This document shows, piece after piece, positions 3,561 to 56,102 of a stretch of DNA of 64,000 bases. The notes under the pieces were generated by a model that worked only from the letters and a program-made list of their open reading frames with translations, ran no database searches and was not told the origin of the DNA. The stretch is from Candidatus Methanomethylicaceae archaeon. Lineage in GTDB: Archaea > Thermoproteota > Methanomethylicia > Methanomethylicales > Methanomethylicaceae. The DNA is taken from positions 14,565 through 78,564 of the forward strand of contig JACTUC010000006.1 in the NCBI GenBank assembly GCA_015660995.1. Direction: 5' to 3'. The position numbers and the translations under genes are program-made. The stretch's first letter is position 1, and every line of letters starts with the position of its first letter.

Positions 3561-4400
3561 TCATAACGATTTCAGAAGATCGATATCAAATATTATTCCG
3601 ATCACGTCTTCTTTTGCGTTTGTTACAGGAAGTTGATCTATATCGAATTTCTGCATTTGGATGGCGCATTCAATTATGCTTGCGTTCTCGTTGATGGTAA
3701 TGCATGGTGCTGCCATCACTTTATAGATAGGTGTGTTCGGAAGGGCGATTTTGCCTTTTGTTATATAGAGCACCGAGGAGGTTTCCCAATCCCATTCCTG
3801 GCTCTCCGATCCAGATTTGAGGATAGACTTTGTTTCTTCAATCTTGACCTCACTTATCTTCATTAGATCTGTGTTTGAGACGATGCCCGCAATTTTTAAT
3901 TCGTTGTCAATAACCAAGGTGACGTATTCATTTGCTAAATGCATCATTGCGCTTGCGATGTGAACTGGGGTATCCATCCAGCAGCTAAAGACTGATGCCT
4001 TCATAAAGTCTTTTACCTTTTGGTTTGAGTTCGACTTAACTATTACCTTATGCACCACATCGCCGACGGTAATTATGCCTAGCAATTCATCATTTTCTAT
4101 AACTGGTAGTCTTCTGTAGCGCTTCTCGACCATTATCTTTATGCAGTCCTCAAAAGGAACTTCAGGGCCGGTTGTTACAACGTTTGTGTTCATTATGAGG
4201 GCAAGTTGATCTTCATCTGGGTGCTTAAAGAGGTCCTCTCTCGTAATGATCCCGATTAATTTTTTAGTGCCTTTCTTGACTACAGGCATGCCCGAGATTT
4301 TCCTCTCCTTAAGCATATTTAGGACCTGCTCTCGACTGCCTGGAACCTCTGCGTAGATGACATTTTGGTTCATCACGTCTCTTACTTTCATGTTGACCAC
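3561..4400 (-). CDS. Four-CBS-domain protein
   Basis: Repeated CBS signatures (GMPVV..LIGIIT, RRLPVI..LLGIITVGD, DQLPV..VIGII). Confidence 0.9.
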   Translation of the reverse strand: MVNMKVRDVMNQNVIYAEVPGSREQVLNMLKERKISGMPVVKKGTKKLIGIITREDLFKHPDEDQLALIMNTNVVTTGPEVPFEDCIKIMVEKRYRRLPVIENDELLGIITVGDVVHKVIVKSNSNQKVKDFMKASVFSCWMDTPVHIASAMMHLANEYVTLVIDNELKIAGIVSNTDLMKISEVKIEETKSILKSGSESQEWDWETSSVLYITKGKIALPNTPIYKVMAAPCITINENASIIECAIQMQKFDIDQLPVTNAKEDVIGIIFDIDLLKSL

Positions 4401-4441
4401 TCATTTATCGCAATTACATGGTGCTCTCTGGCAACAAGCAA

Positions 4442-5770
4442 CTACCTTATCTTAATGTACTCGTAGGCATCCTTCGTCGAGGAGAAGCAATAATTCACTT
4501 TCTGGAAGCCCTTCTTCAATTCTGCGACCTCAAGAGCCACCTTGGCCGGATCCTTATTGTCACATATTACCTTCTTAAAGAAGTCTGCCACCTCTTCCAT
4601 TTCGGATTTTTTCATGCCCAAGCGGGTTAGTTCTTGGGTACCTACCCTTATGCCGCCAGGTGCCTTGTAGTCCCTGCCCATCCGCTTGTCATATGGCAAC
4701 AAATTCCTATTGACTATAATGTTGGCTTTCTCTAGCCGTTTCTCTACCTCAAAACCATTGCCATATTTTGTCACATCCATAATCATCATGTGAGATTCTG
4801 TGAACCCTTTCTTCTCATACAATACATTTATGCCACGCTCAAATAGTGCCTGAGCAAGTGTTTTTGAATTAATCACAATATTCCTCGCGTAGTCGGGATA
4901 AAACTCCAAGGCTTCCGCAAAAGCTATGGCAACTCCTGCAACTGCGTGAAGATGGTGATTGCTCAACAAGCCAGGGAAAATTACGCGTTTTATTGGTTCC
5001 GCATACTTGGACCATGAAACGATGGCACCATGCTGTGGACCGGCTAGTGTCTTATGTGTGCTCATTGTAAAGGCATCCACACCGTCCCCGATGGGATCCT
5101 GGAATATGCCTCCAGCTATAAGACCAGCCACATGAGCACCATCGTAGATCACCTTGGCATCATAGCCTTTAGCAAGCTCAACTATCTCCTTGACGGGGTG
5201 CGGGAATAGAAAAACGCTGGCTCCAAGTACAAAGATTTTTGGAGGCCTGCCTTGATCCTTTAATTCTCTAACGAATTGAGCCGTTTTATCGATATCAATT
5301 GTAAAATTTTCTTCATCAAAAGGATAGTTGACTACGTCCAACTCCCTTACTGTCCCTGCTGTTCCACCAAGGCTCTTTTTGGAGTGGCTAATGTGTCCTC
5401 CAGTTGGGATTGTGCAAGCCAGAAGCACGTCCCCAGGATTTCCAAATGTTGTGAATGCACACAAATTTGCTAAGACGCCAGATATCGGTCTTACATCAAT
5501 AAACTCAGCTTTGAATAGCTTTTTGCCAAGCTCTATTGCGACGGATTCTACTTCATCAAGATATTTGCATCCAGCATATACCCGTTCCCCCACCCAGCCC
5601 TCGGCATACCTGTTTCCAAAATCGCTTGCTAATGCTTCTCTGACCGCTTGGCTTGGAACGTTTTCGCTTGCAATCATGGGCAGCGATTGTTTGATCATTG
5701 CGTGATGGTTTTCCAAACTCCTAAGGACACTCTCGTAAGCGTCTCTACCGCTGGAGATAGAATTGACCAC
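4442..5770 (-). CDS. glyA: Serine hydroxymethyltransferase (archaeal type)
   Basis: MIASEN, RYAEG, GGHISH, PLP lysine in STHKTLAGPQHG. Confidence 0.96.
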   Translation of the reverse strand: MVNSISSGRDAYESVLRSLENHHAMIKQSLPMIASENVPSQAVREALASDFGNRYAEGWVGERVYAGCKYLDEVESVAIELGKKLFKAEFIDVRPISGVLANLCAFTTFGNPGDVLLACTIPTGGHISHSKKSLGGTAGTVRELDVVNYPFDEENFTIDIDKTAQFVRELKDQGRPPKIFVLGASVFLFPHPVKEIVELAKGYDAKVIYDGAHVAGLIAGGIFQDPIGDGVDAFTMSTHKTLAGPQHGAIVSWSKYAEPIKRVIFPGLLSNHHLHAVAGVAIAFAEALEFYPDYARNIVINSKTLAQALFERGINVLYEKKGFTESHMMIMDVTKYGNGFEVEKRLEKANIIVNRNLLPYDKRMGRDYKAPGGIRVGTQELTRLGMKKSEMEEVADFFKKVICDNKDPAKVALEVAELKKGFQKVNYCFSSTKDAYEYIKIR

Positions 5771-5881
5771 AAAAGATTCCTCCTTTAGACTAAGTACTTC
5801 TAATATGGTGAAAAGAAGGTAATATACATAATGCTTAAAAGAGAAGGTACTCCATTTTTCTTAAAGCTGAAGGTGAATTAA

Positions 5882-6055
5882 TTGCCTAAGAGCGAAAAAA
5901 AGAAAGAAGCGCCAATGCCAATGACCGGCGCAGGGCTGATACGCTTCTTTGAGGACGAGACTTATGGGATAAAAATCAAGCCCATCTTTATCGTAGGAAC
6001 CTCGGTAACGCTTATAGTCGTAGTAATCATGGCGCATCTCTTAACAGGCCTTTAG
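5882..6055 (+). CDS. secG: Preprotein translocase subunit Sec61beta (archaeal SecG), 57 aa, not in ORF track
   Basis: TTG start after AGGTGA; MPKSEKKKEAPMPMTGAGLIRFFEDETYGIKIKPIFIVGTSVTLIVVVIMAHLLTGL*; AGLIRFFE motif plus one C-terminal TM helix. Confidence 0.9.
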   Translation: MPKSEKKKEAPMPMTGAGLIRFFEDETYGIKIKPIFIVGTSVTLIVVVIMAHLLTGL

Positions 6056-6057
6056 AT

Positions 6058-7041
6058 CTAGCACAGCGGCTGGGCATCTATGCCTTTTTTCCTAAGTTTT
6101 GCAGCAAAACTGTCGGCATAGCCATGGACCGTGAAAACTTTTTTGGGGGAGCATTCATCAATAAAACACATCAGTTGGGTGTAGTCCGCATGCCCGCTGA
6201 GTACGAAAGATACGTCCGCGCTTCTCCGACCATAAGTTAATGCCCATCCTGTCACCGTTGCAGTCTTCGCATTTGGGTACACCGTGCTCAGATTTCTTGG
6301 ACCAAGCGATGCTGGGAACAGGCAGACGCAACTCTTGCTGCGCATAAGATCTTCCCCCTCCTTAGCCATGTCATAGAAGACTAAGTCTTCCCCCATTGAG
6401 TTGATCGCAGTGTTTGTTCTAGTTATGGAGGGGTGCGTTACCACAGGAATCGAGGTGTAAAGATTGAATAGCTTTGTAATCTCCTGAGCTTTTCCAACTG
6501 GGTAGACAAGAATAAATGGGAGATCTCCTTCCATAATTGTCTTCGCAGCCCAGTCGACAATGGTGTCGTAAACTTCATTTCTAGGCGGAAAAAGGAAGTT
6601 CGGTCTTCCAAATGTTGTCTCGATAACCAGAATATCACATTCATGCGGCTGCATAGCCTTTTGAGTCAACGTATCCACGAAATTAAAATCCCCTGTATAG
6701 AGAAAAGTCACACCATCTTGTTTAAGCAGAAGAGCTCCTGATCCAAAAACGTGCCCGGAGTTGATGATCCTGAGCTCAGTCTGATGGAGTCTCACTGGTT
6801 TATCATAAGCGCATGGTACTGCGTTCCTGACCTTCTTATTTGATATGGCTTCGAAAAGAGCGATAGTTTCACGCGTAGAATATTTTGGTTTCCTGGCGTC
6901 AATGAATGCGCCTGTATGATCCCGGTGGGCATGGGAGATGAAAGCACAATCTGCTGGACCAATTCGATTCGTGGGATCCAGAACTATCTTGAGGTCATGA
7001 GTCTGAACCATGATTCCATTGTGCCAACTTATTTCAACCAC
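6058..7041 (-). CDS. Metallo-beta-lactamase/beta-CASP nuclease (Snm1/ligase-associated exonuclease-like)
   Basis: SHAHRDH, GHVFGS, YTGDF, ETTFG, SGHADY, VHG motifs. Confidence 0.85.
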   Translation of the reverse strand: MVEISWHNGIMVQTHDLKIVLDPTNRIGPADCAFISHAHRDHTGAFIDARKPKYSTRETIALFEAISNKKVRNAVPCAYDKPVRLHQTELRIINSGHVFGSGALLLKQDGVTFLYTGDFNFVDTLTQKAMQPHECDILVIETTFGRPNFLFPPRNEVYDTIVDWAAKTIMEGDLPFILVYPVGKAQEITKLFNLYTSIPVVTHPSITRTNTAINSMGEDLVFYDMAKEGEDLMRSKSCVCLFPASLGPRNLSTVYPNAKTATVTGWALTYGRRSADVSFVLSGHADYTQLMCFIDECSPKKVFTVHGYADSFAAKLRKKGIDAQPLC

Positions 7042-7142
7042 TCAGTGCACCAGTAACCACTAAATAGCCGAGTCGTTTAAAAAGTTACTACTGAATAAGT
7101 TGTTAACTTTTCAAATGACTGATGATACGGGGATGAAACTTA

Positions 7143-8945
7143 GTGTCGTTTACGGACAGACTTGCCAAGAAATACAGCAATACCTTCAGCCTACCTAGCA
7201 GGAAGGTATTGATCGCGGAGCTGTTCATGCTTGGAGCTCTGGTCGGTACAATTATGTATACGATTGAGCCAAGTTCCAAAGGACCGGTGTTTGGGTTAGC
7301 GGACGGGCTAATATCGTTGGCATTTGGAAGCTTTGTAAGCACGTTTGTTATCCATAAACTGACTAAAAAAGGCATATTAACTTTCAATAGGACCATAGCG
7401 ATGGCTGACTTTAGTATTGTATTCCTTGCAATTGGGCTTATCACCGCAGCGGCTTTTTCTCGGGTATTCAATAATCCAGGAAGCTTTGAAAGCATTTATT
7501 TTGTTTCATGCGGCATCATTGTTGCATTTATCTTCATAATATTATCGATAGCTTCTGATTTTAAACAATATGAACTTTTTATTTTAAGTATATTTCAACC
7601 TTTTGTAATATTAATAATACATACAACGTTAATTTATTTTATTTATTATGTAAATTTACTCAATATAGTAACAAACTTTGCGAGCTTTTTTTTGATGGCA
7701 ATAATTGCTTACGTCCTTGGGAGATGGTACTACTTCTCAATAGGTAAAGTCGGTAAAGAATTGTTGGGATATAGCGGTGTAGTTTTGTTTAAGGCCTTCT
7801 TAGAATCATTAATGTTAGATAAGAGCGGACTTATGGAGCAACTGCTAAAGATCCTAGCGGTTCGGGAAGACGTCGAGGTGAGGAGTATTTATTTCAAGAG
7901 TACAAGGCAAAACGGAGTCGTTGTTGCACCTCTCATCCACCCAGGGCCATTCAAAGATCTTGGTAGTAGTAAGCTCCCTACCCGGATCGCGGCTTCTTTC
8001 TTATCTAAGAATACGCTACCAGTCGTTTTCCATACCCCAACCACACATGAAAAAGACTTGATATTAGCCAAAGATTGCGATAGAGTGGTTCAGATGCTGC
8101 AAGAGCTTGAAGTTATACCAGAAAGAAGCTTATCCAAACCTATTATTGTGAAGAAGAAAGGGTCTGTCACAGTTAGTTGCCAAGTTTTTGACGATATTCC
8201 ATTAGCTGTGATTACTCGAGCGCCCATCCCCACAGAGGATTTGCCTGACTGCATAAACGACCTATGCATGGCAAAAATACAAGAGAATGGGTACTCTGAT
8301 GGTGTTGTGGTGGATGCCCATAACGTGATGGACCTAACTTATTCAGAGCTTAGTAGCGAGGACAAGAAAGATATTGTTGAGGCCCTCGGGGAGGCCCTTG
8401 AGGAAACGCATATTATAGAGGAGGGTCCCCTCATCGCGGGTTTTTCAAATGTTAGATTGGAGAACTATTCACCTAAAGATGGCATTGGAAACGCGGGCAT
8501 AATGGTTCTTGTTACCGAGGTCAAAGGAAACAAGGCCGTATATGTTTCCATAGATGCCAATAACATGGTTGTAGGTTTAAGAGAGAAAATTCAAAAAGCT
8601 TTGAAAGAGATCGGTTATGAACATTCTGAAGTCACTACGACGGATACGCACGTCGTTACTGGGCGTTCAGCAGGCGAGGGGTACTTCCCTCTTGGCAAAA
8701 CCATACCCGAAGATGTTCTAATTGAAAAGATCATAGAAGGAGTTGCTGAAGCTGACTCTAAAAAAGCGGAGTGTTCTGTGAAATTCTCTAAAAGAAAGTT
8801 GGAAGATGTCTACCTCTTAGGCAACAAAGGATTGGAGAACCTTTGGAAGGTTACCGACAAATCTCTCAAGGTTGCAAAAAGAAGACTTATGGTGCTCGTC
8901 CTCCTGCTACTAGCTAGCGGGATCATCGTTTATAGCATATTATGA
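7143..8945 (+). CDS. DUF2070 family membrane protein
   Basis: N-terminal TM helices; HPGPF, DAHN, DANN, TTDTH motifs. Confidence 0.85.
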   Translation: MSFTDRLAKKYSNTFSLPSRKVLIAELFMLGALVGTIMYTIEPSSKGPVFGLADGLISLAFGSFVSTFVIHKLTKKGILTFNRTIAMADFSIVFLAIGLITAAAFSRVFNNPGSFESIYFVSCGIIVAFIFIILSIASDFKQYELFILSIFQPFVILIIHTTLIYFIYYVNLLNIVTNFASFFLMAIIAYVLGRWYYFSIGKVGKELLGYSGVVLFKAFLESLMLDKSGLMEQLLKILAVREDVEVRSIYFKSTRQNGVVVAPLIHPGPFKDLGSSKLPTRIAASFLSKNTLPVVFHTPTTHEKDLILAKDCDRVVQMLQELEVIPERSLSKPIIVKKKGSVTVSCQVFDDIPLAVITRAPIPTEDLPDCINDLCMAKIQENGYSDGVVVDAHNVMDLTYSELSSEDKKDIVEALGEALEETHIIEEGPLIAGFSNVRLENYSPKDGIGNAGIMVLVTEVKGNKAVYVSIDANNMVVGLREKIQKALKEIGYEHSEVTTTDTHVVTGRSAGEGYFPLGKTIPEDVLIEKIIEGVAEADSKKAECSVKFSKRKLEDVYLLGNKGLENLWKVTDKSLKVAKRRLMVLVLLLLASGIIVYSIL

Positions 8946-9246
8946 TGTAAGACGAACTTATCTTTACAGCAACGGTCACACTTATTAGAAATATCACGTC
9001 GTTTATGGTTTCTAAAGACTTTCTATTGGATTATCATCAACTGATGATCTAATATATTTTCATCAATTTCTAATGGTTTTTAGTTATTGTTTTATGGATT
9101 AACGTTGTAGAAAAATGATGTTGAACATATCATTATATAATGTAAAATTCCATTATTACGTTTTGAGAAACCTCTTCTATGTCTTTAATTATGCTGATTT
9201 TTCTTAAAGTCGATGATTTGGAGGATCATGTGACTATGTGATAAAG

Positions 9247-22591: not shown

Positions 22592-22870
22592 GTGACTAAT
22601 CTCTTGATAATACTGCTCTCTGGCGATGGTAAGTTCTTGCTTGAAGGAAAAAGTTTGGACACAGCCCTCGAATCAGGCAGGCAGCTCTTCTCCCTCCTCA
22701 GGGAAGACCGGATTCAAGAGTTCTCCGAAGCTCTAGACGAGCTTCACTCGTTTGTGAAGCAGAAGGGGCAGCCAGTTGAGATCTATCACAATGCCGACAT
22801 AATAGTTCCGCCGGTAAAGTGCGATCCAAGGACCATCCAGTCGATTATGGGGTTTCAAAAAACACCGTAA
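22592..22870 (+). CDS. Hypothetical protein
   Basis: 92 aa ORF with upstream TTTAAA; protein-like composition; no motif recognised. Confidence 0.45.
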   Translation: MTNLLIILLSGDGKFLLEGKSLDTALESGRQLFSLLREDRIQEFSEALDELHSFVKQKGQPVEIYHNADIIVPPVKCDPRTIQSIMGFQKTP

Positions 22871-24162
22871 AAAGTGCCTACGACACCATCCCAAGACCGC
22901 TTCTCCGCCCCATACCTCTTGAATGGTTTGGTAAGGTGTCTCATCGCCCTTGGCGGAGGGAGATAGGCACCGTTTATCAACTTTCTATCGACTTTCTTCA
23001 GAACCGCCAATTCTGTCTTCAAACCGCATTTCTTACACTGATAGCCTTTACCCTTGCCTTCCGACTTCATACTCTTTTTGCAGTTCGGGCAGATCGGATT
23101 CGCCGGCGCTTCTGTTACAATGTTAAGAAGCTCAAGTCTCTCGAGGTTAAATGTCAGCTTACCACTCTCAAGAAGCCTGACTCCGCCGAACGCCCTCACT
23201 TTGTCCCCTAGCAGGAGATCCCTGACAATGTTCCTGAAGCTTCCTGAAGGCTCATAGCCCGCTATATCAATCTCACCCGAACTATCCCTCATTGATGCTA
23301 TTACGTGACTACCTTTGAGAACATATGGCACTCGCGATATTGTTCCCTCAATTATCGCAGCTTGATATGGCTTCAGCTCGGCTATCAATGCCGATCGAAT
23401 GAGATGCGCTCCTGTCCCTTGGTTGCTGCGACAGACCATCCACCTCTCGCCACCAACAAACTTGATCTTGGATAGTGCCTCCATAACCACCGAGGGACTG
23501 TCCCCTCTCACCCCGAAGAGTATCGGGTCAGGGCCATGAGGTGTTATGAGCACCCGATCTTCCTCAACATCAATGTTATTGAAGGTATGCGACGTGGTAT
23601 CCCTATCAAACATAAGCACGCTTTCGTGATCTACTTCCCTCTTTTTTCCCCAAAGGGCACTGCCGCGGTATGCTATCAGCTCGAATGTGTGGTCCCTTTC
23701 GAGGGCGTTGCCTATGGATGCGAGAGCGCCTACCAGGCCCCTGCCTCCTCTTATGAGCTCGTACTTCACGTTTGCCTTCAATGCTACATCCAGTGCTTCA
23801 GCAGGTGTTATGACATCCCATAGCGCCCGACGCCCAAGATCTCTTACGATCTGTGGAACTTGACCCTCAAGAATAGCTATGCCTGGCTGATTCTTACTAT
23901 CCTTCTTGTCCCTATACTCCTCCACTAAATCTGTTGCATTGCCGAGTATTCCCATAGCGTCTGTGTCTGATGTGAATCTGAGGCATATTGCCGCGTTTCC
24001 GCGGGACTTCCAGGGAACATTTGGGTTTAGCCTAATTAGGTTCGGGTAATCGACGAACTTAGAAATCTTAATTAATCTCTCAACAAGCAGGGCACCAATA
24101 TATGTCGTGCAACCTCGCTTCAGAGAGTCCGTATCATCGATGCCGAGATGATACAGCGCCAT
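22855..24162 (-). CDS. tiaS: tRNA(Ile2) agmatidine synthetase
   Basis: GIDDTD..GCTTY, RLNPNVPWKSRGN, PHGPDPILFGVRG, SNQGT, C-terminal Zn ribbon, RHLTKP. Confidence 0.96.
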   Translation of the reverse strand: MALYHLGIDDTDSLKRGCTTYIGALLVERLIKISKFVDYPNLIRLNPNVPWKSRGNAAICLRFTSDTDAMGILGNATDLVEEYRDKKDSKNQPGIAILEGQVPQIVRDLGRRALWDVITPAEALDVALKANVKYELIRGGRGLVGALASIGNALERDHTFELIAYRGSALWGKKREVDHESVLMFDRDTTSHTFNNIDVEEDRVLITPHGPDPILFGVRGDSPSVVMEALSKIKFVGGERWMVCRSNQGTGAHLIRSALIAELKPYQAAIIEGTISRVPYVLKGSHVIASMRDSSGEIDIAGYEPSGSFRNIVRDLLLGDKVRAFGGVRLLESGKLTFNLERLELLNIVTEAPANPICPNCKKSMKSEGKGKGYQCKKCGLKTELAVLKKVDRKLINGAYLPPPRAMRHLTKPFKRYGAEKRSWDGVVGTFYGVF

Positions 24163-46946: not shown

Positions 46947-47912
46947 CTAAAGAAGGGTGCGAGCCCCTTTCACTTGCCCAAGCTCTTTCTCGAACCATGC
47001 CAGGGTTCTCCCAAGGCCCTCTCGGATGCCTACCTTTGCCTTCCATCTCAACTCACGCTCTGCCTTTCCCACATCAGGCCGCGTTAGTTCGACATCGCCG
47101 AGCCACGCTACCCCGCCCCTGGCGCTGACTTCCACGCCCCCCAGACCCAGTATCTCGAGCATCATCTTCACAAGCCCAATGACGCTGCAGGACTCGCCTA
47201 GGCCGATGTTGTATGCTTCCCCTGCGCACTTCGACTTCGGCGCAAGCAGAAAGGCATCGATGGCATCGTCTATGTACAAGTAGTCCTTTGTCTGCTCCCC
47301 TGAGCCTAGAACCTCCAGCCTCGCCGAGCCCCTCAGAAGCTTCCTGTAGAGATCTATCATCACGCCTTTGTTTGTCCCAGGCCCGTAGACGTTGAACAGC
47401 CTCAGGGTGACGGTGGGGACATGATATAGCTCGCTGTAGATCCTGCAGTAGTGCTCAGCCGCCATCTTCGATAGGCCATAGAACGAGTAAGGTATGAGGG
47501 CTTCGTCCTCGGGGGTAGGCGTCCTTGCAGCGTTTCCGTAAACAGTGGACGATGAGGCGAAGACCACCCTGGCGCTGCCCGCTTTTGCTGCCTCAAGTAT
47601 GTTGAAGGTGCCATCTATATTTATGCTCATGTCTAAGCGAGGGTCCTTCGTAGAGACAGGAACGCTCGACTGTGCCGCGAGGTGGTAGATCAGGTCGCAC
47701 CCCTTGGCCACTCCCGCCACCGCCTTCGCGTCCCTTATGTCGCCATTGATGAACTCCACTCCGCCGGTCTTGACAAGACCAGATATATTGGAGAGGCTCC
47801 CTGTTGAGAGATTGTCAAAGATCCTGAGCATCTCTCCCTGCCTTATCAGTTGCTCTGCCAGCTTAGGACCAATGAAGCCTGCCCCACCTGTAATAAGGAT
47901 CAACGTTTCCAC
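46947..47912 (-). CDS. NAD-dependent sugar epimerase/dehydratase
   Basis: ITGGAGFIG, HLAA, YGLSK, FNVYGP; start moved to the GTG at 47912. Confidence 0.92.
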   Translation of the reverse strand: METLILITGGAGFIGPKLAEQLIRQGEMLRIFDNLSTGSLSNISGLVKTGGVEFINGDIRDAKAVAGVAKGCDLIYHLAAQSSVPVSTKDPRLDMSINIDGTFNILEAAKAGSARVVFASSSTVYGNAARTPTPEDEALIPYSFYGLSKMAAEHYCRIYSELYHVPTVTLRLFNVYGPGTNKGVMIDLYRKLLRGSARLEVLGSGEQTKDYLYIDDAIDAFLLAPKSKCAGEAYNIGLGESCSVIGLVKMMLEILGLGGVEVSARGGVAWLGDVELTRPDVGKAERELRWKAKVGIREGLGRTLAWFEKELGQVKGARTLL

Positions 47913-48072
47913 CTGAGCTAGAAGTTTGGGGGGAGTGATATTAAAGGTTCTACGTGCGAAGTGCACTGCCGAACCCCCGGCGCCATAAAAACGATATAAC
48001 TCTGTAATTGGGAAAGTCTTAATTCGATCGAGCATTAACCTTTCTACAACAACTCACTTACCAGGGTCTAAC

Positions 48073-49242
48073 TTGAGATATTTCACCAGCCCATACAACT
48101 TTCTTCACCAGGAATGCAGACAGATAAAGATCTACGATACGACCCTCAGGGATGGGGAGCAAACCCCGGGCGTCAAGTTCACGAAAGAGCACAAGGTCCA
48201 GATCGCGAGGAAGCTCGACACCTTGGGCGTGCACACAATTGAGGCTGGGTTCCCTGTAATATCCGCCTATGACGAGGAGGCAGTCAGGGCCGTCGCAGCC
48301 GAGCACCTCAGCGCCGACGTCATATGCCTTTGCAGGTCAAAGAAGAAGGACATAGATGCCGCGCTGAGGGCAGACGTAGACGGAGTAATAATATTCCTGG
48401 CTGTGTCAGATCTACACCTGAAGCACAAGCTGCACATTGATCTCACGACCGCCGTGAACATGGCAGCAGAATCAATCTCCTACGCTAAGGAGCACGGCCT
48501 CTATGTCCAGCTCTCGGCTGAGGATGCCACACGAACCTCGCTTGACTCGCTGACAGCACTCTACAGTGCAGCAGAGGAGAGCGGGGCAGACAGGCTAGGC
48601 ATTGCGGACACGACAGGTTGCATAAGACCCCAGGGGATGCACTACCTCGTGGAATCGCTGCGGAAGGTCTTTGACACAGAGCTCTCGGTCCATTGCCACG
48701 ACGACTTCGGGCTGGCAGTGGCAAACTCGCTCGCAGCCTACGAGGCTGGCGTGGATGCGATATCTGTCACAGTCAACGGTCTCGGCGAGAGGTGTGGCAA
48801 CGCTGCACTGGAGGAGGTCGTTATGGCTCTCTATTCCCTATACGGGGTAGACCTCAAGTTCAGGATCGATCTGCTCAAGTCACTCTCTGACATGGTCTCG
48901 GAGTACTCTGGTATCCCTATCCCGATAAACAAGGCCGTCGTAGGCCCCAACGCTTTCAGGCATGAATCGGGGATCCACGTGGCTGCCGTGATGAAGTGCC
49001 CGTTCACCTATGAATCCTACGAGCCGCAGCTGGTGGGTCAGGACAGGAAGCTAGTCTTCGGCAGGCACTCCGGGTCCGACGGCGTCAGGGAGAAACTCAA
49101 GTCCTTTGGCTTAGCTATCAGCGATGAAGAGCTTGCTGACATCGTAAGCCAACTGAAGACCCTACCGATGGACGCCTATCTCGATAACGATGGGCTAGCC
49201 GATTTCGCCAAGAAGATCCTGGCGAAGAGGGGCAGAAGTTGA
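48073..49242 (+). CDS. aksA: Methanogen (R)-homocitrate synthase
   Basis: MRYFTSPYN..IYDTTLRDGEQTPGV, DVDGVI.F...SDLHLKHKL, HCHDDFGLA, GLGERCGN, HESGIH; no LeuA regulatory domain. Confidence 0.85.
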   Translation: MRYFTSPYNFLHQECRQIKIYDTTLRDGEQTPGVKFTKEHKVQIARKLDTLGVHTIEAGFPVISAYDEEAVRAVAAEHLSADVICLCRSKKKDIDAALRADVDGVIIFLAVSDLHLKHKLHIDLTTAVNMAAESISYAKEHGLYVQLSAEDATRTSLDSLTALYSAAEESGADRLGIADTTGCIRPQGMHYLVESLRKVFDTELSVHCHDDFGLAVANSLAAYEAGVDAISVTVNGLGERCGNAALEEVVMALYSLYGVDLKFRIDLLKSLSDMVSEYSGIPIPINKAVVGPNAFRHESGIHVAAVMKCPFTYESYEPQLVGQDRKLVFGRHSGSDGVREKLKSFGLAISDEELADIVSQLKTLPMDAYLDNDGLADFAKKILAKRGRS

Positions 49243-50066
49243 GCAAAGGAGTCTATTCACTCGCCACATCCAACAAGGCAAAGGTGGCGGTTGGGCTCAA
49301 TTCGGACCTCCCGTCAGCGGAGAGGGTGGTGAACTCGGCCCTCTTCGCCAAGAGGGAAGGTTACGCCGAGCCAATTTTCATCTCTGCGAAGAAACCCGAA
49401 TCCCCCCTATTCGATGCAGTAGGCAAGGACATGTCTCTTATCGTGGACAAATCTCCACACGTGACACTGGTCGAGCTCCTGAAGGAAGGCACGGTGGATT
49501 CTGCCATCAGGGGCAACCTCGCTTCCAAGGAACTCATACCCCTGCTCCGCGAGGAGTTCAATTGTCCCAACCTCTGCCGCATCACCCTGCTCGACATAGC
49601 AAATAGGCTCGTTATGCTGGCGCCTGTGGGCATAGACGAGGGGGACAAGCTGGAGGACCTACTCATGATAGCAGGGCACGCAAAGAGGCTGGCAGAGGCG
49701 CTCAGGATGCCATGCAATGTCGCAGTCATCTCAGGAGGGCGGCTCGAGGACAGGGGAAGAAGCAAGAAAGTGGACAGCATGCTATCTGCCTCGGAATCGC
49801 TCACGAAGGAGCTGAAGGCGGTGGGTATTAGCGCTGTGAATGTCGGGATCGAGATCGAGCGGGCAATAGAGGGCGACTCAACCCTCATACTTGCTCCCGA
49901 TGGCGTGATGGGAAACCTGATCTTCAGATCGCTTGTCCTAGTTGGGAACGTCGAGAGCTTCGGGGCCTACGCGGCTGCACTGCCGAGGGTTTATGTCGAC
50001 ACCTCGCGGGCTAAGGGAAGCTTCATGCTGCCAATAGTCCTTGCCAGCGCCCTCAGCAAGCTTTAA
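49239..50066 (+). CDS. mtxX: Methanogenesis marker protein 4 (MtxX family)
   Basis: VDSAIRG, LAPVGIDEG, SGGRLEDRGRS..VD, APDG..GNLIFRSL, VDTSR. Confidence 0.88.
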   Translation: MSKGVYSLATSNKAKVAVGLNSDLPSAERVVNSALFAKREGYAEPIFISAKKPESPLFDAVGKDMSLIVDKSPHVTLVELLKEGTVDSAIRGNLASKELIPLLREEFNCPNLCRITLLDIANRLVMLAPVGIDEGDKLEDLLMIAGHAKRLAEALRMPCNVAVISGGRLEDRGRSKKVDSMLSASESLTKELKAVGISAVNVGIEIERAIEGDSTLILAPDGVMGNLIFRSLVLVGNVESFGAYAAALPRVYVDTSRAKGSFMLPIVLASALSKL

Positions 50067-50144
50067 AGGCCCCGCACTGCTTGGCGCGGCATTACGACAA
50101 CTAAAAATAGCCGCCATACCCTCTTATAGGAAGAGGTCTCAACA

Positions 50145-51380
50145 TTGGGAAGCACAGCTGTTGAGAAGATAATTTCTCGTTCCGCGGGCCGAGCCGTGCA
50201 GGTGGGCGAGTTCGTCGAGGTTCCTGTAGATTTTGCCTATTTACACGATGGCACAGGCCCATTGATCGTAGATGCCCTCGGCAAGATGGGCGTTGAGAAG
50301 GTCATTGACCCAGACAGAGTGGGGATAGTCTTCGATCACTCCGTCCCGCCATACAGCGACCAGGCAGCAACTCTGCAAGCAAAAGTTAGGAAGTTTGCAA
50401 GGTCTCAGGGGATATTGAAGTTCCATGACCTCGGCGAAGGCATATGCCACCAGGTTATGCCCGAGAAGGGCTATGTCAGCCCTGGAACAGTTGTGATAGG
50501 CGCCGATTCCCATAGCTGCACTCTCGGCTGCTTCGGGCTCTTCTCATCTGGTGTGGGTGCAACGGACCTGGCCTACATACTCGCCACCGGGGGCACATGG
50601 CTCAAGGTCCCTGAGACTCTGAAGGTAGAATGCACAGGGGTTCTGAAAGGCAAGTTGTCGTCGAAGGACCTCATACTAGAGATCGTGAAGATGGTCGGGA
50701 CCGACGGCGCAACCTACAAGGCGCTTGAATTCAGTGGCGAGGCGGTCCGGCAGATGTCCCAATCATCAAGGATGACCATGTCCAACATGGCTGTGGAGAT
50801 GGGCGCAAAGACTGGATTCATGGAGGCGGACGCGAAGACATTCGAGTTCCTCGGCAGGACAGGTCCCGTCGTCAAGACCGACTCCAAGACCGAGACCGTG
50901 ACCGTCGATGCTGGCAGTCTCGATCCCAAGGTCGCCTGCCCGGGGAGCGTAGCCAACGTGAAATCAGTTGTAGAGGTAGAGGGTACCCACATCGATCAGG
51001 CATTCCTGGGCTCGTGCACCAACGGGAGGTATGAGGACCTCTACGAAGCCGCGAAGATAATAAAGGGGAAGAAGGTGCACCAGGATACTAGGTTCATTGT
51101 AATCCCCGCCTCGAAGACTATACAGCTGGCGGCGCAGAAGGACGGGCTCATGGACATATTCCAGGAAGCTGGCGCAATTATAGGTGTTACCGGCTGCGGG
51201 CCGTGCTTGGGCGTGCATATGGGGGTCTTGGGTGAGAATGAGGTCTGCGTATCCACTTCCAACAGGAACTTCATTGGGAGGATGGGTCACCCCAAGTCCT
51301 CGGTCTACCTTGCTTCCGCGCAGACGGTTGCGGCGTCAGCAGTCGAGGGGAAGATAACCGATCCAAGGAGGTTTGCTTGA
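50145..51380 (+). CDS. aksD: Homoaconitase large subunit
   Basis: [42 protein letters not shown]. Confidence 0.85.
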
Positions 51381-51868
51381 TGCTAAAAGGTCGAGTCTGG
51401 AAGTTCGGGGATGACGTCGACACCGATGTGATTATACCTGCAAAGTACCTCCGGTCTGTGGACCAGACTGTATGGCCGAAGCACGTTCTGGAGGGGCTCG
51501 ATCCCAGCTTCAGCTTAAAGGTGAAGCTTGGCGACATAATCGTCGCGGGTAAGAACTTTGGCTGCGGCTCCAGCAGGGAACAGGCAGCACTGGCGATCAA
51601 GTGGGCTGGTGTGGCTGCCGTGATTGCCGAATCCTTCGCTAGAATATTCTTCAGGAACGCCATAAACAACGGCCTACCCCTGATCGAATGCAGGGGGATA
51701 AGCAAGCTCGTGGAGGAGGGAGAGGTCATAGCGGTTGACCTCGATCGCGGCGAGGTCCGCACAAACAATGGGATGTTGAGGTCGGTCCCACTGCCGCCAT
51801 TCCTGCAGGAAATTGTCAACAGCGGTGGCCTCGTCGAGTACTATAAAGCAAGAAAGAAGGTGCATTGA
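51377..51868 (+). CDS. aksE: Homoaconitase small subunit
   Basis: [13 protein letters not shown] (YLRx loop of tricarboxylate-acting enzymes), [20 protein letters not shown]. Confidence 0.85.
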
Positions 51869-53473
51869 TTGTCTAGGATCACACAACGGGATGCCGGATC
51901 GCCCAACACATCCCAGGTCGTGGTGAAGGCCCTTGAGAAGCTCGGCATTGGCGTCGCCTTCGGCATACCAGGCATGTGGTCATTGCCAATCTATGATGCG
52001 CTCTGCGACTCGAAGATACGACACGTCCTCGTCAGGCACGAGCAGTTTGCGGCCTATGCTGCTGACGGGTACGCAAGGGCTTCCGGGAAGCCAGGCTTCT
52101 GCCTAGGCACGGCTGGACCTGGCGCAGTCAACATCGCAGCAGGCATCGCTGTGCCGTTCCGAGACCATTCCCCGGTCATCGCAGTGACCGGTCAGGTTCC
52201 CACTTTCGAGCAAGGGAAAGGATGGATAGAGGATCTCGACCTCCAGGCAATATTTTCTCCCGTTACCAAATCCACAGCGCAGATCTCGGACCCAACAAAT
52301 GCATACGAGACCATCACCGCCGCATACCTTTCATCAATCGAGGGGTGTCCCGGCCCCTCCCACGTAAGCATACCTGGGGATATCCAGAAGGCGCCATCCA
52401 AGATGAGGGATTACTCCCCGCTCCCTTCCAAGCCCGAACCCGACCCATCAGCCATCGACCAAGTCATGGACGCCATAGCCTCGTCGCAAGCCCCGCTCAT
52501 AATCTCAGGGTGGGGTGCAATCCTATCCGAATCCTCCGAGGGCATTCTGAAGCTCGCCGAGGCGCTTCCAGCACCCGTAACCACATCCTACATGGGCAGA
52601 GGAATAATACCGGAGGACAACCCGCTTTCCCTTGGTCCTGCAGGAAGAAGGGGGACGAAGGAAGCAAACGCTGCTCTCTCCAGATGCGACCTGCTCATAA
52701 CCCTAGGATGCAGGCTGACCAACCTGACGGTCGCGGGCGCTAAGCTGACCTGCAAAGTAGTTCAGGTGGATGTCGATGAAAACAACTTTTCATCCTACGC
52801 CTCGGTCAGGGTGAAAAGCGACGTTGCACTCTTCCTGGACGCAATACTGCCCAAAATCCAACATCGCTCAGGTGAACTTAACCCTCTGATGGGCTCTGTG
52901 AGCGAGCTGCCCGAAAAAGGGGAGGCCCCTGCCTTCGCCAGGGCCATCGCATCCTTCAATGATGCCCTATTCTCCCTCGACATTGGACAGCATACCATTT
53001 GGCTGATGCACGCGCTGAAGGTCAAGAGACCGCGGAGCGTGATCCTCTCGGGCAACCTCTCTGCAATGGGTTACTCCCTGCCTGCAGCCATCGGGGCAAA
53101 GCTGGCCTCGCCAGAACGCAGGGTCATTGTCGTGATCGGCGATGGCGGCTTCCAGATGACCGCCCCCGAGCTCTCTACCATCAGGGAGAACGACCTCGAC
53201 ATATCCATATGCGTATTCAACAACCGTACGCTGGGACTGATAAAGCAGCAGCAGGAGGTCGTCTACGGCAGGACGTGCGGTGTGGACTATACACGCCCTC
53301 CAGACTATGTCAAGCTTGCTCAAGCCTATGGCATTAAGGGACTAAAGATAGATTCCCCCTCCGCCCTCAAAGAAGCACTCCAGATAGCTGACGAGCCTAC
53401 GGTCTTTGATATTCCAATCCCAAAGAAGGAAGGCGTCGAGATGTCAAGACCTAGGATCCTCGACAATCAATGA
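51869..53473 (+). CDS. ThDP-dependent enzyme (three-domain decarboxylase/AHAS-like family), substrate unknown
   Basis: FGIPG, RHEQ catalytic Glu, GPG..N, GDGGFQM...NN; lacks AHAS-specific motifs. Confidence 0.85.
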   Translation: MSRITQRDAGSPNTSQVVVKALEKLGIGVAFGIPGMWSLPIYDALCDSKIRHVLVRHEQFAAYAADGYARASGKPGFCLGTAGPGAVNIAAGIAVPFRDHSPVIAVTGQVPTFEQGKGWIEDLDLQAIFSPVTKSTAQISDPTNAYETITAAYLSSIEGCPGPSHVSIPGDIQKAPSKMRDYSPLPSKPEPDPSAIDQVMDAIASSQAPLIISGWGAILSESSEGILKLAEALPAPVTTSYMGRGIIPEDNPLSLGPAGRRGTKEANAALSRCDLLITLGCRLTNLTVAGAKLTCKVVQVDVDENNFSSYASVRVKSDVALFLDAILPKIQHRSGELNPLMGSVSELPEKGEAPAFARAIASFNDALFSLDIGQHTIWLMHALKVKRPRSVILSGNLSAMGYSLPAAIGAKLASPERRVIVVIGDGGFQMTAPELSTIRENDLDISICVFNNRTLGLIKQQQEVVYGRTCGVDYTRPPDYVKLAQAYGIKGLKIDSPSALKEALQIADEPTVFDIPIPKKEGVEMSRPRILDNQ

Positions 53474-53518
53474 GATTAATAGCTGGCGACATAAAAACAA
53501 AGAGCGAGGGTACATCCA

Positions 53519-54490
53519 ATGGCGGAATACTATTCTAGAGACGCCATAGTGAAACTCCTTTCCTCGAAGAAATGGATCTCCCCCCATAAGAAGGTCGTCG
53601 TGGCCGTGGACAAGAAGGCTGGAGTGGCGGAACTTATCGAGGATCACGCCAGAGGAACATGCCTCGGGGGATCGGCTTGGTCGCTCTACCACTATACGGA
53701 GAACAGCAAGTCTGTCTTCTGGTCAAAGAGAGAGGGCTCGCGCCTCTTCTATAAGCTGAAGCTGTCTGAAGAGAATGCTCCAAGTAAGTTGGAGGCGAGC
53801 TACCACCCAGCATCCATAGAGTCGATCCACTTGGATGGTGACAAGGTAAGGGTGACCTATTCTGGGCTCGCCGGAGCTGGCGTGGCAGCCCTCAGCAGAG
53901 GCTTGGCAGAGGGTGTTGAGGCAGTTGAAGTTCAGGAATGGGGGGGTGGGAAGAAACTGGGCAGAGCAACCATCATCCTCCCACTGAAGGAAAAGCTGAT
54001 AATCGGCGTTGACGACACAGACAAATCCGATGAGGGCGCCACCTGGTCCTTGGTTAACGAGATTGCCTTTGAGATCTCAAAATTGGAGGGGGTCGACTAT
54101 CTTGAGCATGCCATTGTACAGCTCTACCCACAGAATCCCTTCAAGACCCAGAACTGCGTCTCCCTCTCCGTCTCATTCGCCGTCCCTCCGTCCCTAAAAG
54201 AAGGGATAGTAGAAAGGTTCAAAGACGCCATTGGGGAAAGGACGTTCTCCAAGGAGACCGCCATGGCATACTTCAATGGTGTAATGATCAAGGAAGAACT
54301 GATGGCTTTCTCCAAAAGGGCAAAGTTGGAGATGGTGACCGTTGAAGACGCGGAAGAGGCAGCAGAAATGGCTGGCGTCTCGACTATTAAAATAACGGGT
54401 GCTAGGGGGCTAATAGGTGCAGTAGCCGCAATACCCTATGTTGAGTATCCCGACGAAGCCGTTCGCATCTCTGGCGATCAAGTTGTTTGA
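53519..54490 (+). CDS. Methanogenesis marker protein 11 (TiaS-kinase-like C-terminal half)
   Basis: W..P.KKV, GLAGAGV..RGLAEGV, GGGKKLGRA, IGVDDTD..EGATW, VQLYPQNPFKTQNCVS. Confidence 0.85.
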   Translation: MAEYYSRDAIVKLLSSKKWISPHKKVVVAVDKKAGVAELIEDHARGTCLGGSAWSLYHYTENSKSVFWSKREGSRLFYKLKLSEENAPSKLEASYHPASIESIHLDGDKVRVTYSGLAGAGVAALSRGLAEGVEAVEVQEWGGGKKLGRATIILPLKEKLIIGVDDTDKSDEGATWSLVNEIAFEISKLEGVDYLEHAIVQLYPQNPFKTQNCVSLSVSFAVPPSLKEGIVERFKDAIGERTFSKETAMAYFNGVMIKEELMAFSKRAKLEMVTVEDAEEAAEMAGVSTIKITGARGLIGAVAAIPYVEYPDEAVRISGDQVV

Positions 54491-55664
54491 CTTTATCGTC
54501 GTCGGTTCTGGGGCGGGGGGCGCAACTGTAGCCAAGGAACTCTCCGCAGCGGGAAAGAAGGTGCTGCTGCTTGAGAGGGGCATACAACTGCCACCACGAA
54601 AGTCCTCCAAAGCATACTCTATTCTGAAATCCGACGTGGAGGTCTGGCATACCCAATGCCTGGGCGGAACAACGGTGGTTACCATGGGCAACGCTGTCAG
54701 GAGCAAGCTCGATGGTTCACTTTCGCGTTATTACGCCGAGGCAGAGGAGGGGCTTGGGGTTATCCCGGTGCCGGAAGACCACTTGGGCATGGCAACCAAG
54801 TCACTGCTCTCCCTCTCAGATGAATGGGTCAGAATGCCCAAGGCTATAGACTTCAGTAAGTGTAGAGGCTGTGGGCACTGCTCCTCGGGGTGTCCGACAT
54901 CGGCCAGATGGGACGCCACAGCCTATATTCGGGAGGCTATCTCTAACAGCTGCAAGGTTTCTACCAGTGTCGACATAAAGAAAGTATTGATTAAGGGCAA
55001 TAGAGCGGTGGGCGTTGAAGCCTCTGACGGAAAAACCTTCGAAGCTGGCGGCGTAATCCTAGCTGCAGGAGCCATCGAAACGCCTAGGATCCTATCACGA
55101 TCAGGCATAATCTCGGCTGGGAAGGGGCTCTTCGTCGACACCTTCGTAACCATCGGGGGCTTTAAAAGAGGTGTTTCGATGGATCGGGAGCTCGGTATGG
55201 CTGCCTTTCTAAAGAGGGAAGGTTACCTGATATCACCTCATTACTCAAGTTTTCTACCCAATCTGATAGAAGAGAAAGGTGTGTCGCTCAAACCATCCGA
55301 CATATTGAGCCTAATGGTAAAGATTGAAGATGAGCCCATCGGCGAGGTTACCCCAAATGGCATTGTTAAAACCATATCACGGCGGGACTCTACCCTTTTG
55401 GAGAGTGGTAAGCGCGAAGCGATGGAGCTTCTAATCAAAGCCGGGGTAGACTCGGACACAGTTGTATCTGTACACCCAAGGGGCGCACACCCAGGCGGAA
55501 CCTGTTCCAATATGGTGAAATCGCCTTTGGAAGCTAGCACAGAGATTGACTCCCTGTACATCTCGGACGCGAGCATACTTCCCGGTCCATTTGGCCTGCC
55601 GCCAATGCTCACAATAATCGCAATTTCCAAGAGGATATCTGGCATACTACTTGGAAGAGCCTAG
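54483..55664 (+). CDS. GMC-family FAD oxidoreductase with CxxCxxCxxxC motif
   Basis: VGSGAGG, CRGCGHCSSGCP, LAAGAIETPRIL, HPGGT, DASILP..G.PP.LTI; TTG start overlaps the Mmp11 stop. Confidence 0.85.
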   Translation: MFDFIVVGSGAGGATVAKELSAAGKKVLLLERGIQLPPRKSSKAYSILKSDVEVWHTQCLGGTTVVTMGNAVRSKLDGSLSRYYAEAEEGLGVIPVPEDHLGMATKSLLSLSDEWVRMPKAIDFSKCRGCGHCSSGCPTSARWDATAYIREAISNSCKVSTSVDIKKVLIKGNRAVGVEASDGKTFEAGGVILAAGAIETPRILSRSGIISAGKGLFVDTFVTIGGFKRGVSMDRELGMAAFLKREGYLISPHYSSFLPNLIEEKGVSLKPSDILSLMVKIEDEPIGEVTPNGIVKTISRRDSTLLESGKREAMELLIKAGVDSDTVVSVHPRGAHPGGTCSNMVKSPLEASTEIDSLYISDASILPGPFGLPPMLTIIAISKRISGILLGRA

Positions 55665-56102
55665 CAGAAATTCCGATATAACTTCCGCAATTGTGCTGGG
55701 CTCCTCGACATACTTCTTAGGCTCCCAGGTTTTTACCTCCGCCAGTTTCTGCTCCAGCTCCTCAGGGCTCTGGCAGAATAATATGTAACCTTCCTTGCTG
55801 AGCTTTTCCGCAAGCTCGTGGTTCTCTACAACGCCCCGGTTCGGGACGGCGATGGCCTTCCTGTCCGCCTTTATTACCTCGAAGAGAGTGCCTGCCCCTG
55901 TGTGCGTTATGACGAGGTCAGAGGCCACGTAAAGCTCATTGAGATCCTTCCTGAACCTGAACCACTTGGCATTCTTCGGTTCATACTTACCATTACCGAT
56001 CTGCATCATTACATTAGTAAGAGCGCCTCTGCCAGCCAACTCGTCAACCTTCATGGCAAGTTCGTCAAAGGGGGCGACCGACCCTACAGTAACAAAGATC
56101 AT
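55647..56102 (-). CDS. Alg13/PssE-like glycosyltransferase subunit (GT28 C-terminal)
   Basis: MIFVTVGS..FDEL, QIG, VITHTGAGT, VPN. Confidence 0.88.
   Translation of the reverse strand: MIFVTVGSVAPFDELAMKVDELAGRGALTNVMMQIGNGKYEPKNAKWFRFRKDLNELYVASDLVITHTGAGTLFEVIKADRKAIAVPNRGVVENHELAEKLSKEGYILFCQSPEELEQKLAEVKTWEPKKYVEEPSTIAEVISEFLLGSSK

Follow-up and report, generated by a model that had tools for sequence, protein, structure and literature searches.

Why should a protein first read as part of a methyl-transfer system be encoded within a set of cofactor genes? The question is raised by a 64,000-nucleotide stretch of the genome of a Candidatus Methanomethylicaceae archaeon (assembly GCA_015660995.1, contig JACTUC010000006.1, positions 14,565 to 78,564; hereafter the window), in which mmp4, the gene for methanogenesis marker protein 4 (Mmp4, or MtxX), stands between genes of the aksA and aksD type. 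Coenzyme B is required by every methyl-coenzyme M reductase (MCR), and R. H. White and colleagues reportedly traced its late synthesis from 7-oxoheptanoate to 7-mercaptoheptanoate, followed by ATP-dependent coupling to threonine and phosphorylation. We know of no later literature in which genes have been assigned to the steps after 2-oxosuberate (decarboxylation, thiol insertion, threonine coupling, and phosphorylation), and Mmp4 and Mmp11 belong, to our knowledge, to the small number of proteins common to all methanogens that have yet to be given a function. As presented by Kaster et al. (2011, PMC3087415) in the part that concerns this route, coenzyme B synthesis passes through 2-oxosuberate and suberate semialdehyde, and only the Aks-type steps had genes. 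Judging from the sequences, mmp4 belongs to a seven-gene operon that most likely makes coenzyme B. This operon and a wider network of gene neighbourhoods, which joins aks genes, a thiamine diphosphate (ThDP) enzyme, Mmp11 with radical SAM genes, and Mmp4, appear to make a late role in coenzyme B synthesis the best-supported reading of Mmp4.

A seven-gene operon places mmp4 among aks genes

The open reading frame (ORF) at 49239..50066 is the genuine Mmp4/MtxX gene of an MCR-encoding methanogen of the Methanomethylicia (Verstraetearchaeota). Its TTG start and the TGA stop of the 389-amino-acid ORF at 48073..49242 share the tetranucleotide TTGA. The original prediction had pointed out that start and stop overlap, and a 4-base overlap is seen both in the ORF list and in the sequence. 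The same prediction had placed mmp4 between aksA and aksD, and Pfam and NCBIfam profiles agree, with an HMGL/homocitrate-synthase-type gene upstream and homoaconitase-type subunit genes downstream. The host genome (1.63 Mb, 98% complete, with mcrA on contig C24) carries one Mmp4 and one Mmp11 according to a profile search of its contigs. The co-directional run extends over 48073..55664 in the order aksA-mmp4-aksD-aksE-ThDP enzyme-mmp11-FAD/FeS oxidoreductase, its members overlapping or separated by gaps of at most 78 bases, and opposite-strand genes flank it at 46947-48035 and 55647-56102. A search of sequencing runs listed no RNA source, only DNA contigs of peat and wetland metagenomes. The seven genes are as follows.

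48073..49242, plus strand: AksA-type short homocitrate synthase of 389 amino acids, without the LeuA regulatory domain (PF00682, 277 bits; PF22617)
49239..50066, plus strand: mmp4/MtxX, 275 amino acids, TTG start, TIGR03270 match, single copy in the genome
50145..51380, plus strand: AksD/HacA-type homoaconitase large subunit (PF00330; TIGR01343, 546 bits; HacA_Meth, 522.8 bits, under the cut-off of 550)
51377..51868, plus strand: AksE/HacB-type small subunit (TIGR02087, 218.7 bits; HacB_Meth, 200.1 bits, under the cut-off of 230)
51869..53473, plus strand: three-domain ThDP enzyme, candidate 2-oxosuberate decarboxylase (PF02775, PF02776, PF00205)
53519..54490, plus strand: Mmp11 with a TiaS-type kinase domain, TCKD (TIGR03280, 316.9 bits, above the cut-off of 255.8; PF22641)
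54438..55664, plus strand: short GMC-type FAD oxidoreductase with a 4Fe-4S insert (PF00732, 65 bits; Fer4 at residues 137-156); 54438 is the start of the longest ORF, and the true start may be further downstream

By elimination and context, the window AksA, AksD, and AksE look like the elongation genes of coenzyme B synthesis. The AksA-type protein scores 468.5 bits on TIGR02090 (cut-off 484.75), and the other HMGL genes of the host are of the LysS type (TIGR02146, 428.8 bits, above the cut-off), the LeuA type, and the CimA type (684 bits, above the cut-off). A quick tree grouped the window AksA with the cluster synthases of a sister-family locus (L097) and of a Hydrothermarchaeota operon, both described below, with an SH-aLRT support of 99, and left the LysS, LeuA, and CimA paralogues of the host outside. 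The small subunit carries the loop YLRS at a position that we take to set substrate specificity; the corresponding loops are YLRT in the Methanocaldococcus jannaschii homoaconitase 2pkp, YLVY in the isopropylmalate isomerase 3vba, and YLVL and YKFK in the two other small subunits of the host. Together with a score of 187 bits against 3vba and 163 bits against 2pkp, the YLRS loop amounts to mixed evidence, and a YLR[ST] loop is in any case an unreliable criterion for the Aks pathway, a Methanocellales genome showing only YLTI and YKYD. Two more pairs of aconitase-type subunits are encoded in the host genome, each with an Iso_dh gene in its vicinity. Compared to the Aks system of M. jannaschii, the window is similar in having AksA-, AksD-, and AksE-type genes on the two sides of mmp4 and a YLRS loop that resembles YLRT, but the curated methanogen equivalog scores are narrowly missed and the operon contains no AksF. 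The aks genes of M. jannaschii are scattered.

The ThDP enzyme was ruled out as an acetolactate synthase, its TIGR00118 score of 403.5 bits lying below the cut-off of 538.35 and the genuine IlvB of the host (776.8 bits) being encoded on contig C20. Its relatives at 54% identity or more bear only Methanomethylicia names; outside this group, orthologues are not separable from IlvB relatives by score alone.

The cluster is retained in Methanomethylicaceae and rearranged in a sister family

We surveyed 80 loci fetched with the Mmp4 profile, ten of them from Methanomethylicaceae-type metagenome-assembled genomes (MAGs). AksA lies directly upstream of Mmp4 in nine of these ten, the tenth contig beginning at Mmp4, and AksD-AksE-ThDP-Mmp11-GMC follows downstream wherever the contig extends. 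The same count (9/10) was obtained for AksA in a second set of ten Methanomethylicaceae loci, which partly shares contigs with the first. In the sister family (locus L097, 37-60% protein identity), the order is ThiF/MoeB-like-Mmp4-AksA-AksD-AksE-Iso_dh-ThDP-Mmp11-methyltransferase (opposite strand)-GMC; here the upstream housekeeping synteny is absent and the gene order is altered.

Some loci of the class add features of their own. The ThiF/MoeB-type gene directly upstream of Mmp4 in L097 (10822-11565, minus strand) encodes an E1-like adenylyltransferase, which might relay sulfur for the coenzyme B thiol. Four Methanosuratincola-type loci (L017, L038, L108, and L112) carry a 5.7-kb opposite-strand insert between aksA-mmp4 and aksD, with genes for a glutamate-synthase-like protein, an amidotransferase, a PII protein, and an ammonium transporter, and Mmp4 remains with aksA. 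In another family of the class (f5, L098-L102), a trans-polyprenyl synthetase gene (PF00348) is directly upstream of Mmp4 or one gene off in 5/5 loci, a pairing that recalls the uppS adjacency described for Methanobacteria and Methanococci in the synteny part of a recent structural study (PMC12978539).

Mmp11 is linked to aks genes and to Mmp4 in other lineages

A Hydrothermarchaeota genome (G402) contains a tightly packed nine-gene operon (L184, G402:C4:44000-63900, 17-9201, minus strand) with the order radical SAM-Mmp11-radical SAM-DUF7714-AksA-AksD-AksE(YLRT)-Iso_dh-acetolactate-synthase-like ThDP enzyme. Its Mmp4 is located on a different contig. This genome gives no mcrA match, and the operon would represent a pathway of the coenzyme B type outside the methanogens.

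For Halobacteriota, we took 40 canonical Mmp11 loci, with 9 kb on each side, from the Mmp11 score list blind to their neighbours. Thirteen (L199, L201, L202, L209, L211-L215, L217, L218, L222, and L226) have AksA-AksD-AksE-DUF7714-Iso_dh near Mmp11, usually after a radical SAM gene and often with a tandem paralogue of Mmp11. Nine more adjoin a radical SAM gene of the MSMEG_0568 type, one has only another type of radical SAM gene, and 17 of the 40 show none of the query proteins within 9 kb. In L214, a protein like the ThDP-binding part of the indolepyruvate oxidoreductase (IOR) alpha subunit is encoded between the radical SAM gene and AksA. DUF7714, an uncharacterised family, always sits between AksE and Iso_dh in the Halobacteriota clusters; the idea that it might be a distant relative of Mmp4 was rejected (hhalign probability 0.13, no PDB match). 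Taken together, three differently built clusters in three phyla join Aks genes to Mmp11 and a ThDP enzyme.

Mmp4 itself is tied to Mmp11 elsewhere. Ten distinct loci have Mmp11 or a lower-scoring paralogue of it (~200 bits) as the adjoining gene of Mmp4 on the same strand: the Methanocellales-type L059, L067, L113-L116, and L118, together with L117, L095 from a non-methanogenic class of Thermoproteota, and L096 (identical to L023) from the sister family of the window. Because L113-L118 were chosen after their coordinates had already shown the adjacency, this count is not a frequency; within 127 Mmp4-bearing Halobacteriota genomes, at least seven have the pair within 1.5 kb. The two genes overlap by 4 bases in L096, L114, and L118, and a radical SAM gene completes a triplet in L067, L095, and L096. 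At least three lineages besides that of the window have Mmp4 next to a paralogue of Mmp11, and the loci concerned occupy two or more distinct regions of the Mmp4 tree. The sister-family genome G165 has two Mmp4 genes, one in the aks cluster (L097) and one in a unit behind a radical SAM gene, where it is translationally coupled to a paralogue of Mmp11 (L096). Gene context in Methanobacteriota and Thermoplasmatota was taken from the synteny reported in PMC12978539.

Mmp4 has a phosphotransacetylase-type fold and a conserved basic cleft

By sequence, the window Mmp4 is best described as an ordinary though divergent member of its known family. It matches TIGR03270 (methanogenesis marker protein Mmp4/MtxX) with an E value of 4.4e-55 and 186.2 bits, residues 72-259 aligning to positions 5-192 of the 204 in the profile, and its 70 N-terminal residues lie outside the model. 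The score falls short of the curated cut-off (190 bits) by 3.8 bits, which speaks against the assignment at face value; however, the same profile gives 174-199 bits on 25 relatives from the taxonomic family of the window, so the shortfall indicates a divergent clade and not a different family. A large protein collection contains 475 relatives at E <= 1e-5, the nearest named ones from Candidatus Methanomethylicaceae and Verstraetearchaeota MAGs (51-67% identity) and the next from Methanoperedens and Methanosarcinales (~36-41%). One relative comes from a contig whose title names a bacterial 'Candidatus Acidiferrales' MAG (L080, DASPRZ010000019.1), where its neighbours are Methanomicrobia-like; this is probably a mis-binned archaeal contig. 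No Pfam family matches the window Mmp4 at E <= 0.01, PF01515 and PF00180 included, and its only further NCBIfam match, at residues 205-245 (E 0.0054), is to the phosphate-acetyltransferase portion of PRK08190; precomputed annotations place PF01515 on several homologues and PF02504 on one. Searched against the PDB with phmmer, it matched 9nzy (MtxX, MTH_231) at E 1.1e-26, and the phosphotransacylase 1yco gave a non-significant E of 1.3.

The 9NZY entry is the crystal structure of MtxX from Methanothermobacter thermautotrophicus (MthMtxX), published in FEMS Microbes in February 2026 (PMC12978539); what we cite from it is what its introduction, results, and discussion state. The authors found the fold to be homologous to phosphate acetyl- and butyryltransferases, with a weaker relationship to PdxA and to isocitrate/isopropylmalate dehydrogenases (IDH), and detected no significant structural homology to methyltransferases. 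They superposed S215/R216 of the DTSR motif on the catalytic S309/R310 of M. thermophila phosphotransacetylase (Pta), reported that MtxX is without the metal-binding histidines of PdxA, the NADP-binding loop of IDH, and the phosphorylation loop, and judged the ligand to be probably hydrophobic and acidic. Their synteny survey restricted the mtxXAH arrangement to some Methanosarcinales and gave uppS, mmp12, mmp2, and mtxA/mtxH as neighbours of MtxX; those three sections of the paper contain no mention of aks genes or coenzyme B.

An AlphaFold 2 model of the window Mmp4 (pLDDT 92.7, pTM 0.91) was compared with known structures using Foldseek. The best matches are 9nzy chains A and B (E 6.6e-19, TM 0.73/0.84), followed by the phosphotransbutyrylase (Ptb) 7vg9, Pta 1td9, EutD 4e4r, and the PTA domain of MaeB; no methyltransferase is among the Foldseek matches listed, nor among those of the Pfam and NCBIfam scans. 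The original prediction that Mmp4 is probably not a methyltransferase agrees with both this comparison and the 2026 structure; it is correct but, as far as those sections of the structural paper go, already published (PMC12978539). We take Mmp4 to be a dimer-type alpha/beta protein of the phosphotransacetylase/phosphotransbutyrylase/PlsX fold, with a strongly basic conserved cleft. Two motifs were followed in an alignment of 26 diverse family members.

49893..49919, plus strand: APDGVMGNL motif, residues 219-227, lining the conserved cleft; P220, G222, G225, and N226 invariant in the 26 sequences
49998..50009, plus strand: DTSR motif, residues 254-257; D254, S256, and R257 invariant in the 26 sequences

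The original prediction had likened the stretches APDG..GNL and DTSR to motifs of Pta, PlsX, and PdxA. The motifs are indeed present and conserved, but the likeness is weak in sequence and becomes clear in the fold. R230 is also invariant, making six invariant arginines (R91, R114, R168, R174, R230, and R257), and no histidine occurs among the invariant or nearly invariant columns of the 26 sequences, so that the metal-binding histidines of PdxA have no counterpart. All eleven cleft residues named for MthMtxX (R54, R74, R128, R134, N185, F188, R189, L193, D213, S215, and R216; PMC12978539) have identical counterparts in the window Mmp4 (R91, R114, R168, R174, N226, F229, R230, L234, D254, S256, and R257), as matched through the phmmer alignment to 9nzy, allowing for a 33-residue chain offset. 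Across the 26 sequences, nine of these positions never vary; the other two are F229, which is nearly invariant, and L234. The two proteins are otherwise only 28-29% identical over the structural alignment, and their contexts differ, with aks, ThDP, and Mmp11 genes in the window vs uppS in the published locus (PMC12978539).

Pta, Ptb, and EutD share the two-subdomain alpha/beta architecture (Foldseek E 1e-14 to 1e-11), and the Ser/Arg of the Mmp4 DTSR motif are the counterparts of the catalytic Ser309/Arg310 of Pta in the published superposition, although Pta has a catalytic Asp that is not conserved in MtxX, and MtxX has extra cleft arginines (PMC12978539). Mmp4 is also 30-100 residues shorter than Pta, and the acceptor proposed below is an amine, not CoA. 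In the window sequence, a Met stands seven residues past S256 (counted by eye in the sequence, with no structural alignment); the catalytic base of M. thermophila Pta is D316. PlsX (PF02504) belongs to the same fold superfamily and handles medium or long acyl-phosphates, but has no significant sequence match to the window Mmp4, which moreover shows no context of acyl carrier protein or fatty-acid synthesis. The PTA-like domain of MaeB matches the fold at E ~1e-11 to 1e-12 and shows that the fold can sense a ligand; it is fused and non-catalytic, whereas Mmp4 is free-standing and keeps the Ser/Arg pair.

A candidate route for late coenzyme B synthesis

If the operon makes coenzyme B, AksA, AksD, and AksE, with an Iso_dh encoded elsewhere, would build 2-oxosuberate, which the ThDP enzyme would decarboxylate to 7-oxoheptanoate. 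The flavin/iron-sulfur GMC protein would help in reductive thiolation, and the kinase-like Mmp11 would spend ATP to yield a phosphorylated intermediate. The Pta-like Ser/Arg site of Mmp4 would then bind an acyl-phosphate, 7-mercaptoheptanoyl phosphate, and transfer its acyl moiety to the amine of threonine or phosphothreonine, much as the original prediction had suggested. Pta serves as the model of this acyl-phosphate chemistry, and the kinase domain of TiaS, to which that of Mmp11 is related, phosphorylates both a carbonyl oxygen and the hydroxyl of threonine. The window contains both Mmp11 and its full-length paralogue.

22855..24162, minus strand: full-length TiaS (tRNA agmatidine synthetase; NF040849, 388.6 bits, under the cut-off of 600)

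The host genome, at 98% completeness, has no match above noise to ComE (best 34.8 bits) or Mmp16/ComF (best 28.3 bits), and contains neither DUF7714 nor a close homologue of the radical SAM genes of the other clusters. With these absent, and with one Mmp4 and one Mmp11, the four non-Aks genes of the operon are left for the four missing steps, and we infer their place in the pathway on this basis. The ThDP enzyme and the flavin/FeS protein may also serve coenzyme M synthesis, or coenzyme M may be imported.

These parts of the proposal differ in strength. The analysis establishes what Mmp4 is, its fold and conserved cleft, and how the operon is built and conserved; the pathway roles of the four non-Aks genes go a step beyond this. 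That Mmp4 is a transferase using an acyl-phosphate in a late step is a plausible assignment, held tentatively and short of likely, and the exact reaction set out above is more speculative again. The most ambitious version, in which the seven genes at 48073-55664 provide the complete second half of the coenzyme B pathway that has so far been missing, and in the simplest form known, with Mmp4 as N-acyltransferase and Mmp11 as ATP-dependent kinase, strikes us as rather doubtful. Acyl transfer is compatible with the Ser/Arg pair shared with Pta, with the basic cleft, and with the ligand predicted from the published structure to be hydrophobic and acidic, a description that coenzyme B intermediates match; none of these features is specific to it.

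Several observations weigh against this reading. A single order supplied all cases in which Mmp4 lies directly among aks genes. In the tree, the Mmp4s linked to aks have long branches and fall together with weak support (86/56), so the embedding may have arisen just once. Within Methanomethylicaceae, unrelated upstream genes are syntenic too, so the conservation of the cluster in that family is weak evidence alone. No Mmp4 was found within 9 kb of the canonical Mmp11 or aks clusters in the 40 Halobacteriota loci, and 67 of the 80 Mmp4 loci show none of the operon's genes nearby. Mmp4 stands elsewhere beside Mmp2 (17/34 loci), mtxA/mtxH, or polyprenyl synthetase (5/5 f5 loci), and uppS or mmp12 neighbour it in the published synteny survey (PMC12978539). 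The fold can be non-catalytic, as in the MaeB PTA domain recovered by Foldseek, and the catalytic aspartate of Pta is not conserved in MtxX according to the structural paper (PMC12978539). Finally, mcrA was not found in three genomes that all carry Mmp4 and Mmp11, namely G378 (98% complete), G402, and G529, so that the pair is not strictly tied to MCR. G378 has the Mmp4-Mmp11-radical SAM triplet, and G402 keeps a full aks cluster despite its lack of an mcrA match; a YLR-type small subunit was not found in G378 and G529, to which little weight attaches given the unreliable criterion. Adam et al. (2022, PMC9635834) argue, in the passage that bears on this, that MCR-less lineages may still use the CoM-CoB heterodisulfide with Hdr-like complexes.

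Alternative roles for Mmp4

Could Mmp4 instead act with Mmp2, an ATP-using protein of the AIR-synthase/PurM type, in the maturation, modification, or activation of MCR, its position among aks genes being an accident of one lineage? Of 34 Halobacteriota loci (L119-L152, including four selected because of their long open frames), 17 have Mmp2 (TIGR03267, 412.5 bits, above the cut-off of 365) just ahead of Mmp4 on the same strand or no more than two genes away, and the Mmp2-adjacent Mmp4s occupy several separate parts of the Mmp4 tree. The same adjacency occurs in Methanomicrobiales and Methanotrichales, and mmp2 is usually clustered with Mmp3, 5, 6, 15, and 17, as the synteny part of the structural paper has it (PMC12978539). 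Each of the pairs inspected consists of the two genes alone, preceded by a replication factor C gene in divergent orientation, and belongs to no larger marker cluster. A fusion of the two proteins, suspected from the long open frames, was rejected, the genes being in different frames in L119 and L120. The host has an Mmp2-like gene (G000:C24:79974-80906; L161 1492-2424) that faces the gene for MCR component A2 in convergent orientation and lies at a distance of ~2 kb from mcrA; it scores 249 bits on TIGR03267, under the cut-off, and is far from Mmp4, which lies inside the aks operon and not with Mmp2 or mcr. Considering also that Mmp4 is present in the three genomes where mcrA was not found, and that the link to Mmp2 names no reaction, we consider such a role unlikely.

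A second alternative leaves Mmp4 in the coenzyme B pathway, as a sensor or chaperone for a 2-oxodicarboxylate or coenzyme B or in another phosphoryl- or acyl-dependent step, with Mmp11 alone forming the C-N bond. The operon and neighbourhood evidence is the same for this as for a transferase, and the basic cleft with its six invariant arginines would also suit di- or tricarboxylates or phosphorylated products. TiaS joins an amine to an ATP-activated carbonyl, and Mmp11 may thus need no separate transferase. The non-catalytic acetyl-CoA sensor of MaeB has the Pta fold, and the loss of the catalytic Asp in MtxX, as described with the structure (PMC12978539), points the same way. Against these stand the invariance in Mmp4 of the Ser/Arg pair that is catalytic in Pta, its conservation as a free-standing protein in single copy, and its translational coupling to an Mmp11 paralogue, which suggests an enzyme pair; on balance, we find a role of this kind quite unlikely.

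An accessory function in corrinoid methyl transfer, as MtxXAH was first interpreted, is a very remote prospect for Mmp4. MtrA- and MtrH-like genes do follow Mmp4 in the Methanosarcina-type loci L029, L123, and L127, and mtxAH after mtxX was described for Methanosarcina, Methanohalophilus, and Methanococcoides, but both the Mmp4 tree and the published survey confine this context to one clade, and a methyltransferase fold appears neither among the Foldseek matches listed nor in the structural paper (PMC12978539). The absence of mtxA/mtxH from the vicinity, noted in the original prediction, is borne out by the window ORFs scanned, among which there is no MtrA- or MtrH-like gene; the host genome does have one MtrH-family gene, but it sits on another contig, C21.

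The suggestion in the original prediction that Mmp4 replaces AksF as the dehydrogenase of 2-oxoacid elongation would account for the lack of an Iso_dh gene in the window operon and for a fold distantly related to isocitrate/isopropylmalate dehydrogenases (PMC12978539, Table 2), but can be practically dismissed, because Mmp4 and an AksF-type dehydrogenase share the L097 cluster and the host has two Iso_dh genes (a complete one on contig C15, with AksF2_Meth as best equivalog, and one split over two contig ends), an Iso_dh is likewise part of the Hydrothermarchaeota operon, the 26 Mmp4 sequences have no invariant His, and the NADP loop and metal ligands are absent from the published structure (PMC12978539).

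Implications for methanogen biochemistry

A full-text search, with many subscription papers and supplements beyond its scope, found no literature joining Mmp4 or Mmp11 to coenzyme B, and the operon context of mmp4 and the wider aks-ThDP-Mmp11-radical SAM-Mmp4 network are new as far as we found. The operon, together with the clusters of aks, Mmp11, and radical SAM genes in other phyla, yields a short list of candidate genes for late coenzyme B synthesis. If the proposed role of Mmp4 and Mmp11 is true, two universal 'methanogenesis markers' would be assigned to cofactor synthesis, a decades-old gap in methanogen biochemistry would be closed, and new methanogen-specific inhibitor targets would become available. 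The formation of an amide from 7-mercaptoheptanoyl phosphate would be a new reaction type for the phosphotransacylase fold. The persistence of 'marker' genes in archaea that lost MCR would also be explained, and the presence of Mmp4 and Mmp11 in these MCR-less archaea would point to a use of coenzyme B outside methane metabolism.

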